Below are positions 39,193-41,863 of a DNA stretch of 64,000 nucleotides, piece by piece. The position numbers were made by a program, and so were the translations under genes. Under the pieces are notes generated by a model. It was not told the origin of the DNA and did not search any database. It saw only the letters and a list, made by a program, of their open reading frames with translations. Each line of letters opens with the position of its first letter. Within the stretch, counting starts at the first letter, position 1. Where the stretch lies: the NCBI RefSeq assembly GCF_003334335.1, contig NZ_QOWQ01000025.1; one strand, 5' to 3'. The stretch is from Escherichia coli (lineage in GTDB: Bacteria > Pseudomonadota > Gammaproteobacteria > Enterobacterales > Enterobacteriaceae).

Positions 39193-40194
39193 TCACCGAG
39201 CCATCTTGACTGCATAATGAACACAAAAATAATGTTCTCCCGCATATCTAAAATGATGTTCAATTTTTCTCAAACCTATATATGGAGTCTCCACTTCTTT
39301 AATCCCAACTATCTCATGAGATTCTACACCAATATCTACCGGAGTAATCTCTTTTAGATAATCAATGTATCTCTCACACCAAGCATCAAATTTTGCACCA
39401 GTATAATAAGCAATTAAAAACAAGCGTTTAACATTAATAGGATTATAGTTACCAATTAGCTTTGAATAATGCTTTAATATGTTAGCTTGATCTAGAGATT
39501 TTAAAATCAATGCTTCTATTATAGCAAATAGATTTCCTTTATCTTCAATAACAAGATCTAATTCACCCGCACTTTTACCAGATTGAGACTCTCCCTCTCT
39601 AGTTTGATCTTTTACCTCATAATTCTTAGCTAATAACATATCCCGTATAAAATCATTAAAATCATCTTCACCATATCCTTTAGCAGAGCGACGCCCCAAT
39701 CTTTGAAGCACCCAAGATAAATCACTATCAAACTTTATAAAATTCAAAGGACGCTGCACTCGACCATCCTTTGATATTAAGCTTATACTATTAAGATTTA
39801 ACAAATTAATCCTTTGCCTGATTAATTCATCAATATATCCAGAGTAACTATTATTATCTAACACTACGATATGCTTATCAAAAGTAGTGGCTGCATTAGC
39901 AACTGCACAAACAACTATATCCTTAATATCCTCAGAACTATTCGGCACTGGTGTACGCAATATCTTGCCTGAAGGAGCTTTAGATAACTCAGACTCCCAC
40001 TTCTTAAAAAACAAAAAAGAATCCTTGTTGTTTCCGCAAGACTTTAAATAACCTAAGCGAATTTTTCCATCAGCATCAAGAATCAACTCATTTTCACCAT
40101 TAACAATGGTTTCAATAAAAAAACCGCTAAAAACTTTAACATCAGAAATATTAGCAGCAACAAATTCAGGACACAAACAAACAGCACAAAGCAT
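39193..40194 (-). CDS. Cargo island 3: 333-aa partner/effector protein of unknown family (possible nuclease)
   Basis: AT-rich ORF whose ATG lies 1 nt after the upstream ATPase stop. Contains a D-x3-E-x-K-like stretch (ELDLVIEDKG); no family confidently recognised. Confidence 0.6.
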   Translation of the reverse strand: MLCAVCLCPEFVAANISDVKVFSGFFIETIVNGENELILDADGKIRLGYLKSCGNNKDSFLFFKKWESELSKAPSGKILRTPVPNSSEDIKDIVVCAVANAATTFDKHIVVLDNNSYSGYIDELIRQRINLLNLNSISLISKDGRVQRPLNFIKFDSDLSWVLQRLGRRSAKGYGEDDFNDFIRDMLLAKNYEVKDQTREGESQSGKSAGELDLVIEDKGNLFAIIEALILKSLDQANILKHYSKLIGNYNPINVKRLFLIAYYTGAKFDAWCERYIDYLKEITPVDIGVESHEIVGIKEVETPYIGLRKIEHHFRYAGEHYFCVHYAVKMAR

Positions 40195-40195
40195 A

Positions 40196-41863
40196 TCAAT
40201 GAACTCCCTTTGAGTTCATTATTTTTTGTATTTTTAATTCCTGTATTCTAATTGTATCCTGAATCTCAACATCCATAAACTCATTTGGCCATGTGATATC
40301 TCCATCAGAATTCACAGCCACTCTATTTAGTAAGGTTGATGTTCCCTCTTCATCTCGCTCAAGATGATAGATTGCCACATGGTCCTCAGTAAGTTCGCTT
40401 GATTCATCAACAATTCTTAATCTAATCCGTCTAACTAATGCATCACTATGTGTTTCAATAATAAAAATTTTCTTTTCTTGCATAGATATTTTAATTAATG
40501 CGTCAGTTAACCATGCCTGCATTTTAGGATGCAAATGTATTTCTGGTTGTTCTATTATTGTAATCGAGCCCTTTGGTGACAAATAAGCTTGAACCAAGAC
40601 AGGCAACACTTGTGATATTCCAAACCCTACATCTGTCAATTCTAAATTAACAGCATCTTGGTTTATAACTATCTTATGAATTATGTCATTAACTCTAACT
40701 ATATCAACCGCTAAGTTAAATTCAGCGAGAAGAAGGTTTATGTTTTCTGTTATTTTTGTATTTTTCTTCAGAATCTCCGCCAACTCAGAGCCATCAGCAG
40801 AATTTAACTGAGCATGATTGACTGTTTTATCTAATAAATAATAACGCTGAGGAAATGCCCTCAACGGGCTGACATGATTAACATTTTCGCCATCAAACAT
40901 TTTTGAAAGCATTAATACTCCCAGAGAAACAACATGTGACAAAAAGTTAACAACAGGGTTGTAGGAATTTCCAAAAAAAACATAAAAACCACGTCCTTCA
41001 TTGACAGGGAATAGCCCCAAAGAATAAGGATTCATGATTTCTAAGATATCAGACTTACATCCTCTAAATACTTCTTGAGGGATAACATCCGACAATACAA
41101 CGACATTATTCTTTTTGGGTAACAGTTCAACTATTCTTTCATCATTCTTATTTAGAAGAACAAATCTCGAAACCTTTACCACACCTTTATTTTTATCATA
41201 TCTGAAGTCATAACTTATTTTAGATGCAGACAATTTATTTCCTGAAATAGAAACAACTTTAGTTAGGCAATCTTTGATTCTCTTCAATGGGCATTCATAT
41301 ATAAATCTGCGTAAGTTTTCTGAGGTCGCCCGGCTAAACATAATATTATTACCAGCATCTCTAAAAAGCATAATCAACTGGCACAATTTATCAGCAATAA
41401 TATTTAATTTAGCCTCCTCAAACTCATCAAAATTAACAATAGCATTCAAAGATTCATTTATCAAATTATTGGCCTTCGCGACCAACTCATCATTATTTTT
41501 TACTGTCTGTATAGTGAATCGCATAATCATAGCAAATGATTCTAAAGTTTCTCTTCTCAGAGTATCAATGCCATTTTTAACTACACTATTATCAGAAAAA
41601 TCAAAGCTAAAGTTAAGTGTTTTGGAGTCATCTTTATTTTTTATAATATTTAATGCTTCCCCCATTCCCACTTTAGGTCCATTCAGCCGTAGAGCAGAGT
41701 CAGACAATGACATTGAATCAACTGTCTGAGAAAACATCAACAAAGAGTTAATTAGTGCACTTTTTCCACAACTATTTGCACCTAACAATATTGTCAATGG
41801 CTTTAAATCTAACTTAAAGCTTTCGTATGCTTTATAATTTTGTCCTGTAAAAGTTCTCAGCAT
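40196..41863 (-). CDS. Cargo island 3: ABC/OLD-type (AAA_15/AAA_21-like) ATPase, 555 aa
   Basis: Walker A (LGANSCGKSAL) near the N-terminus; C-terminal IIEQPEIHLHP (Walker B) and IIETHSDALV (H-loop-like); AAGGAG RBS 7 nt upstream. Confidence 0.7.
   Translation of the reverse strand: MLRTFTGQNYKAYESFKLDLKPLTILLGANSCGKSALINSLLMFSQTVDSMSLSDSALRLNGPKVGMGEALNIIKNKDDSKTLNFSFDFSDNSVVKNGIDTLRRETLESFAMIMRFTIQTVKNNDELVAKANNLINESLNAIVNFDEFEEAKLNIIADKLCQLIMLFRDAGNNIMFSRATSENLRRFIYECPLKRIKDCLTKVVSISGNKLSASKISYDFRYDKNKGVVKVSRFVLLNKNDERIVELLPKKNNVVVLSDVIPQEVFRGCKSDILEIMNPYSLGLFPVNEGRGFYVFFGNSYNPVVNFLSHVVSLGVLMLSKMFDGENVNHVSPLRAFPQRYYLLDKTVNHAQLNSADGSELAEILKKNTKITENINLLLAEFNLAVDIVRVNDIIHKIVINQDAVNLELTDVGFGISQVLPVLVQAYLSPKGSITIIEQPEIHLHPKMQAWLTDALIKISMQEKKIFIIETHSDALVRRIRLRIVDESSELTEDHVAIYHLERDEEGTSTLLNRVAVNSDGDITWPNEFMDVEIQDTIRIQELKIQKIMNSKGVH

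Follow-up and report, generated by a model that had tools for sequence, protein, structure and literature searches.

A two-gene minus-strand cassette

A 64,000-nucleotide (nt) stretch of Escherichia coli DNA (RefSeq assembly GCF_003334335.1, contig NZ_QOWQ01000025.1), here called the window, contains a P2-type prophage that carries two adjacent genes between its replication gene A and its cos site. The first encodes an ATP-binding cassette (ABC) ATPase of 555 amino acids (aa), ORF555, and the second a 333-aa partner, ORF333, predicted to end in a nuclease domain. As argued below, the two genes probably form a mobile anti-phage or anti-mobile-element cassette, in which an ATPase of the NsnB/HEC-03 clade would gate the nuclease.

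40196..41863, minus strand: ORF555, ABC ATPase of the NsnB/HEC-03 (DUF3696-tailed) clade, as placed by PADLOC, Pfam and BLASTP
39193..40194, minus strand: ORF333, partner of no described family, from family searches and an AlphaFold2 (AF2) model
41869..41873, minus strand: AGGAG ribosome-binding site (RBS), 5 nt before the ATPase ATG; an RBS is also annotated in AM157364
40204..40208, minus strand: GGGAG RBS lying inside the ATPase gene near its end, 9 nt ahead of the partner ATG, read from the sequence
39162..39180, minus strand: terminator-like hairpin 13 nt past the partner stop codon, a scan result with a consensus match only

An earlier note on this DNA, made from the letters alone, had described two coupled minus-strand open reading frames (ORFs) of these lengths in an AT-rich stretch, and both the coordinates and the composition agree. 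The GC content is 0.31-0.35 over 39250-41999 versus 0.51-0.60 in the flanks. As stop codons are expected to make up ~7.6% of codons at the local base composition, the chance of 555 or 333 open codons is ~1e-19 or ~1e-12, respectively, which places both ORFs far beyond chance; both proteins also have conserved homologues. The genes are separated by a single base, the ATPase TGA (40198-40196) being followed by the partner ATG at 40194.

The pair has been recorded before. Its DNA is 99.8% identical to GenBank AM157364, "P2-EC5 ORF555 and ORF333," where both products are annotated as hypothetical proteins, and RefSeq labels them "AAA family ATPase" (ORF555) and "hypothetical protein" (ORF333). Exactly this pair, WP_024249463 and WP_024249462, is among the P2 hotspot loci of Rousset et al. 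2022, and a near-identical representative is listed there as system 69, "AAA_15/AAA_21," with 62 occurrences (Table S5). The pair is not described in the 2026 P2/P4 preprint, in the Menshen analysis (PMC12065111), or in the nuclease-NTPase preprint. The cassette is already catalogued; the present analysis adds a family assignment for the ATPase and, at the level of the fold, an architecture for the partner.

ORF555 groups with DUF3696-tailed ABC ATPases

By sequence comparison, ORF555 belongs with the DUF3696-tailed ABC ATPases, its nearest relative being NsnB of the Menshen system, followed by the HEC-03 ATPase and PDC-M55A. It matches AAA_15 and AAA_21 in Pfam. In PADLOC, the top match is NsnB (2.3e-51), with HEC-03B (5e-43), PDC-M55A (5e-41), and the PARIS ATPase AriA (3e-28) behind it; GajA, PtuA, and AbiLi follow at ~1e-9 to 1e-10, the GajA match being confined to the ATPase core. 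PDC-M55 is a three-gene candidate system that is uninformative for comparison. NsnB is also the top PADLOC match for the four family members tested, including the most divergent ones. BLASTP pairs ORF555 over 270 aa, 32% of them identical (E 1e-27), with the HEC-03 ATPase WP_025259138, whose sequence was taken from Table S2 of the HEC-03 preprint (10.1101/2024.01.29.577857). Homologues of ORF555 at 41-45% identity carry PF12476 (DUF3696). The solved folds closest to the ORF555 model are GajA, the retron Eco8 effector, OLD, PtuA, and an SMC head, and none of the solved structures is from a close relative. The family matches and these folds bear out the proposal in the earlier note of an ABC/OLD-type ATPase.

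41759..41782, minus strand: Walker A, GANSCGKS, residues 28-35 (G28, N30, S31, G33, K34, and S35 at least 95% conserved)
40610..40636, minus strand: signature-like TDVGFGISQ, residues 410-418, with GxG replacing SGG (at least 95% conserved)
40541..40561, minus strand: Walker B, TIIEQPE, residues 435-441, with E-Q replacing D-E (at least 95% conserved)
40442..40459, minus strand: H-loop, IETHSD, residues 469-474 (E470, T471, H472, and S473 at least 95% conserved)
40904..41623, minus strand: hypervariable insert, residues 81-320, long helices and a beta-sheet in the model
40199..40366, minus strand: C-terminal tail, residues 500-555, conserved GDIxWPxxFMDVE and then a terminal helix (534-553) in the model

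Conservation was computed over 69 ATPase homologues. The Walker A, Walker B, and H-loop motifs quoted in the earlier note are all present and conserved in at least 95% of these sequences, as is the HVSPLRAFPQRYYLLDK block. The insert at residues 81-320 behaves differently, with column conservation of 0.32-0.48 versus 0.73-0.93 in the core and a mean pairwise distance of 0.73 versus 0.27. This fast divergence makes the insert a candidate sensor surface. At its C-terminus the ATPase has a short tail, made of a beta-strand and a helix, and lacks a Toprim domain; by analogy with the AlphaFold 3 (AF3) models of Menshen the tail is a candidate DUF3696-like docking element.

ORF333 is predicted to join a PIN-like domain to a PD-(D/E)xK nuclease

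Family searches place ORF333 nowhere: it has no Pfam match even at E <= 10, no usable NCBIfam or PHROG match, and no PADLOC family, and a profile search of PDB sequences was also empty. A word-indexed search recovered 53 sequence clusters of the family, each of ~333 aa. The AF2 model, built on 49 sequences, scores 86.8 in pLDDT, the predicted local distance difference test, and shows two domains.

39760..40194, minus strand: PIN-like alpha/beta N-domain, residues 1-145 (AF2 fold)
39196..39747, minus strand: putative PD-(D/E)xK restriction-endonuclease-like C-domain, residues 150-333 (AF2 fold)
39460..39609, minus strand: nuclease core, holding D196, Q197, E211, D213, E227, H242, and K245

These seven core residues are invariant in 49 sequences, among them LmuA-type and AlbA_2-fused relatives, and residues 174-250 match the PADLOC model CARF_PDDEXK weakly (E 0.003-0.008). 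The fold and the conserved residues point to the C-domain as the candidate effector, which would be a metal-dependent nuclease with DNA as its likeliest substrate. The earlier note had singled out the stretch ELDLVIEDKG, which is indeed present at residues 211-220, as resembling D-x3-E-x-K; since K219 is not conserved, whereas E211, D213, and E217 are, it does not stand as a motif of that kind. The same note had seen no obvious match of the partner to the effectors of PARIS, AbiL, or Septu, and neither Pfam (E <= 10) nor the model fold reveals a DUF4435, HNH, RloB, or Toprim domain.

In the PIN-like N-domain a single acidic residue is conserved, so that this domain is probably non-catalytic. 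Searched against 1.84 billion representatives, an N-domain profile found 24 sequences, all of 322-340 aa except for a few short fragments. The profile thus recovers its own small family alone and provides no link to the NsnC inPIN families. The PADLOC model HEC-03A likewise does not match ORF333; among 16 queries it gave a single weak match (E 0.0017), confined to the family's most divergent member, which is a hint at most. Since neither the HEC-03 PIN protein nor any PADLOC model detectably resembles the N-domain in sequence or profile, only fold and analogy suggest that it may be an adaptor.

The nuclease domain recurs in Lamassu and other contexts

The nuclease domain of ORF333 has a homologue at the C-terminus of a Lamassu-type LmuA, of the kind that PADLOC model PDLC03853 matches (E 1e-34), and this LmuA is encoded beside LmuB (2e-152) and LmuC (2e-66). 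The invariant residues are common to both proteins. In contrast, the Lamassu regulator is an SMC-type LmuB with LmuC rather than an NsnB-like ATPase, and the N-terminal region of LmuA is unrelated to the PIN-like domain. A protein of 562-566 aa ends in this domain at two loci, L004 (2660-8560) and L012 (2010-6474); the three scores come from L004, and L012 resembles it in gene sizes.

Three further observations concern relatives of this domain. Further upstream at L004 lies a gene for a 486-aa protein with a weak CARF_PDDEXK/Csx1 match. At another locus, L005 (261-4274), the same nuclease domain is joined to a Schlafen/AlbA_2 domain in a 304-aa protein encoded 4 nt past a homologue of the Tiamat protein TmtA (E 7e-138). 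Descriptions of Tiamat give it one gene, so the AlbA_2-nuclease protein could be an unrecognised second component. Finally, among AFDB50 matches to the partner model, the domain is fused terminally in proteins from Clostridia and Bacteroidota that are 880-1055 aa long and carry a Ser/Thr kinase annotation; these fusions recall Bandua and Aernus, kinase-plus-nuclease P4 systems named in the 2026 P2/P4 preprint.

An alternative concerns how the nuclease would be controlled. The same parts might read DNA directly, recognizing ends, structures, or modifications and cutting as an ATP-driven, restriction-like enzyme after the manner of Gabija, Lamassu, or McrBC, instead of sequestering a nuclease until a phage protein frees it, as PARIS does. 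The folds closest to the ATPase (GajA, OLD, and SMC heads) would suit such a mode, as would a nuclease of BamHI/BglII/McrC-like type that is shared with LmuA. However, Pfam detects no DNA-binding domain in either ORF555 or ORF333, and recognition of diverse phage proteins would suit the hypervariable insert no less well than recognition of DNA. We consider direct DNA reading possible, if somewhat unlikely.

The two genes are inherited as a fixed pair

In every fetched locus encoding a full-length partner, a homologue of the ATPase lies directly upstream, and across 25 related loci the two genes are spaced by -8 to +11 nt. The distance matrices of ATPase and partner are correlated with r = 0.95, a value reached in 0/2000 permutations. 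This co-divergence indicates that the two genes are inherited as a fixed pair. No DUF262 (NsnA-like) gene was found at the locus, nor in the gene calls of those related loci that were inspected.

One related locus departs from the intact arrangement. On an Enterobacter roggenkampii chromosome (L006, 6502-7999), the ATPase is cut to 410 aa beside an insertion sequence (IS) InsA gene, and the partner is intact. This copy looks like one in decay, and its state offers a hint that the partner is not lethal by itself.

Similarity to, and difference from, known two- and three-gene systems

HEC-03 consists of a DUF3696 ABC ATPase and a PIN protein, both of which are required for defence (Payne et al., 10.1101/2024.01.29.577857). 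It is like our pair in several respects: HEC-03 has two overlapping genes with the ATPase first, its partner starts with a PIN fold as ORF333 does, and the ATPases share the motifs LTDVGFG.SQVLP and EQPEIHLHP. The HEC-03 PIN protein has 157 aa and is described as VapC-like, whereas ORF333 has 333 aa, carries an additional predicted PD-(D/E)xK domain, and lacks the acidic set in its PIN-like domain. The HEC-03 ATPase is also shorter, at ~461 aa from gene coordinates versus 555 aa for ORF555, which has a larger variable insert. Because its partner is not a small PIN protein, the cassette is not a member of HEC-03.

The second close relative is Menshen, or NsnABC (Millman 2022; Li et al. 2025, PMC12065111). 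In addition to scoring best against NsnB, ORF555 has a GxG signature, a non-DE Walker B, and an Arg-rich motif at the expected place of the Q-loop; NsnB itself has GxG in place of SGG and E-N at the Walker B position (PMC12065111). At the level of the predicted fold, ORF333 also resembles the layout of NsnC, in which an inactive PIN-like domain precedes a C-terminal nuclease, and in AF3 models of NsnB4-NsnC2 the PIN-like domain of NsnC sits on the DUF3696 tail of NsnB (Li et al. 2025, PMC12065111). In sequence, however, PADLOC links ORF333 to none of its NsnC models. Nor does NsnA (DUF262-ParBDB) have a counterpart here or in the related loci examined, so the cassette is not a Menshen member. 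Moreover, the candidate PD-(D/E)xK effector falls outside the 15 described C-terminal families of NsnC, the pair is fixed and co-diverging where shuffling of NsnC is described for Menshen (PMC12065111), and ORF555 extends ~200 aa beyond the 345-position NsnB profile.

These comparisons could be taken to mean that the pair is a decayed Menshen, a non-functional NsnB-NsnC remnant left after loss of NsnA, as the best ATPase match, the NsnC-like layout of the partner, and the missing NsnA-like gene would all suggest. Yet in more than 20 independent loci, from Escherichia, Serratia, Salmonella, Pantoea, Pseudomonas, and Shewanella, there is no DUF262 gene while both cassette genes are whole and have conserved catalytic residues. 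The longer ATPase and the effector type also argue against a remnant, and HEC-03 provides a precedent for a DUF3696 ATPase and a PIN protein that work without NsnA. Decay is therefore a very improbable explanation. The pair might stand between HEC-03 and Menshen as a minimal form, in which an active PIN domain became a docking adaptor once a Lamassu-type PD-(D/E)xK domain had been fused to it, with the insert sensing in place of NsnA; we view this evolutionary route as unlikely.

More distant systems share the general principle that an AAA_15/AAA_21 ABC ATPase governs a nuclease, as in PARIS, Septu, AbiL, and Gabija/OLD. PARIS, Septu, and AbiL are also two-gene operons, and PARIS, like old, is found in these P2/P4 hotspots. 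We rejected membership in each. For PARIS, the AriA match is only 3e-28 and the partner is PIN-like plus PD-(D/E)xK instead of a DUF4435/Toprim AriB. For Septu, PtuA scores ~1e-9 to 1e-10 and the partner is not an HNH PtuB. AbiLi scores in the same range, and the partner is not an AbiL effector. For OLD and GajA, there is no Toprim domain fused to the ATPase. The earlier note had seen a PARIS-, AbiL-, or Septu-like layout; we place the cassette elsewhere, as the ATPase is nearer to NsnB and HEC-03 and the partner is not of the AriB, PtuB, or RloB type. The core of that note, a candidate two-gene defence cassette that may be a divergent or new variant, agrees with all the tests made here, and membership fails for Menshen, HEC-03, PARIS, Septu, AbiL, and OLD alike. 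The family that the note had left unresolved can be named for the ATPase, which is placed in the NsnB/HEC-03 clade, while the partner is of no described family.

Cargo position, distribution, and mobility

The cassette makes up the coding content of an AT-rich cargo segment bounded by P2 backbone genes.

39116..42102, minus strand: AT-rich cargo segment, ~32% GC, ~3 kb, from the gpA stop codon to the conserved cos-proximal P2 backbone
42103-44415, minus strand: replication endonuclease gpA, flanking gene
36033-37835, plus strand: P2 terminase ATPase subunit, flanking gene
37835-38869, plus strand: portal Q, flanking gene
39037..39055, minus strand: 19-nt GGCGAGGCGGGGAAAGCAC, presumed P2-type cos cohesive end, boundary of the hotspot and context outside the system

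Other than the two cassette genes, the interval from gpA to cos holds only short ORFs of 50-151 aa that are nested inside those two genes or overlap gpA or cos. The 19-nt sequence, which we take to be the cos end of P2, has one exact match, at 39037-39055, and zero in shuffles. It is also found in cos-proximal P4 inserts (Rousset et al. 2022 Table S2). Lying between the cassette and portal Q, it puts the cargo next to the packaging site, an arrangement shared with P4 hotspots. Together with the flanking genes, its position puts the cassette between A and cos, where P2 has tin and old, in agreement with the placement given in the earlier note. Several defence systems have been validated in this gpA-cos/gpQ slot by Rousset et al. 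A search for repeats that might mark recombination sites flanking the cassette gave short AT-rich chance matches only.

The cassette is rare among E. coli genomes. Of 5426 complete ones, 2142 match just the cos-proximal segment 39000-39115, and no more than 6 carry the cargo. This distribution bears on a role in prophage DNA metabolism, in which a RecF- or SbcCD-like ATPase and a nuclease would serve repair, recombination, or replication. The ATPase does match RecF (E 9e-4) and an SbcC-like PHROG (E 0.009) weakly, and gene A adjoins. The score, however, is 18.6 bits against a cut-off of 172, and as such values are far under the cut-offs we reject a housekeeping RecF/SbcC role; a housekeeping ATPase was among the findings that, according to the earlier note, would overturn its proposal. 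A function of this kind would also sit poorly with the sporadic presence on a common backbone, the foreign composition, and the occurrence in either orientation and outside phages. We judge it exceedingly improbable.

The pair is found in P2-type gpA-gpQ hotspots in both orientations, in a Serratia P2 remnant, on an IncFII plasmid, in a Pseudomonas integrase/AlpA island, and at chromosomal sites. Within the same P2 gpA-gpQ hotspot, cassettes at L023, L024, L026, L028, and L033 have the opposite orientation to those in the window and at L020-L022 and L025. The opposite-orientation versions are diverged, with 43-57% ATPase identity, which implies repeated independent capture by one hotspot.

Lamassu, with which the nuclease domain is shared, also acts against plasmids. 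The main target of our pair might accordingly be other mobile DNA (plasmids, rival prophages, or satellites), or the pair might be an addiction module that stabilises its carrier, rather than a weapon against lytic phage. Its presence on an IncFII plasmid and integrative islands would fit, as would the part that P2 hotspot cargo plays in inter-virus competition. On the other hand, the nearest validated relatives, HEC-03 and Menshen, were scored as anti-phage, and the sequence does not tell the two targets apart, the two roles being compatible. We regard a main target other than lytic phage as quite unlikely.

Elsewhere in the prophage, at ~23888-25600, a recombinase-family (invertase-like) gene adjoins frameshifted or partial tail-fibre and tail-fibre-assembly genes, which suggests an invertible host-range segment.

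A proposed ATPase-gated nuclease

We favor, as the probable function, a mobile cassette housed as cargo at the P2 gpA-cos slot, in which an ATPase-gated nuclease of the NsnB/HEC-03 clade would act against phage or other mobile elements. ORF555 would be both sensor and switch and ORF333 the effector. In the uninfected lysogen, an ATPase oligomer would keep the nuclease inactive, with the PIN-like domain, its acidic catalytic set lost, most likely serving as an adaptor that docks onto the C-terminal tail of the ATPase. During infection, a phage cue would be read by the fast-evolving insert at residues 81-320; as there is no separate NsnA-type sensor, the ATPase would have to sense alone. The cue may then alter ATP binding or hydrolysis so that the nuclease is released or activated, and cleavage of nucleic acid would end the infection, be it directly or through death of the cell. 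The tethering and gating in this proposal are modeled on the NsnB4-NsnC2 AF3 models and on the structures of PARIS and Septu.

Several points weigh against this proposal. PD-(D/E)xK nucleases have an alpha-beta-beta-beta-alpha-beta core in which an acidic residue opens strand 2 and (D/E)xK lies in strand 3. In the nuclease domain of ORF333, the canonical Lys of (D/E)xK is missing, position 229 being Leu or Met, which makes the assignment of the active site, with Lys supplied by K245 or K195, a guess. ORF555 itself has no Pfam DUF3696 match. Aligned with the HEC-03 PIN protein WP_025259137, the N-domain reaches an hhalign probability of 0.7%, and it shows no similarity to PADLOC models. A fused AF2 model of ATPase-(GGGGS)x8-partner, from an alignment of 14 paired, 55 ATPase-only, and 26 partner-only rows, has a pLDDT of 80 and a predicted template modelling (pTM) score of 0.64 and gave no readable interface information, and we draw no docking conclusion from it. 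A promoter scan of 41864-42102 revealed no convincing minus-strand promoter upstream of the ATPase gene. Lastly, system 69 does not appear in the tables of tested systems of Rousset et al. 2022, where it was listed and not cloned, and we found no literature report of an experimental test of the pair.

Significance

Systems that combine an ABC ATPase with a nuclease (OLD, Gabija, PARIS, Septu, Lamassu, Menshen, and HEC-01 to HEC-04) are among the largest groups of bacterial immune systems, and in few of them is it understood how the ATPase senses infection. The cassette described here is compact, with two proteins in 3 kb, is native to E. coli, and lies in a slot whose cargo is expressed in the lysogen. 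Its parts are clearly divided: the ATPase engine is conserved, the insert evolves fast, the PIN-like domain looks catalytically dead, and the nuclease looks intact. Even if the cassette is active, the general picture of prophage-borne defence would be unchanged. Should the pair be the intermediate between HEC-03 and Menshen outlined above, it would offer a simple two-protein model of sensing and effector gating by a DUF3696-tailed ATPase. More broadly, activity would give the NsnB/HEC-03 clade a new effector architecture, would show that this clade is able to work without an NsnA sensor, and would document that one nuclease domain serves Lamassu, kinase fusions, and this pair.

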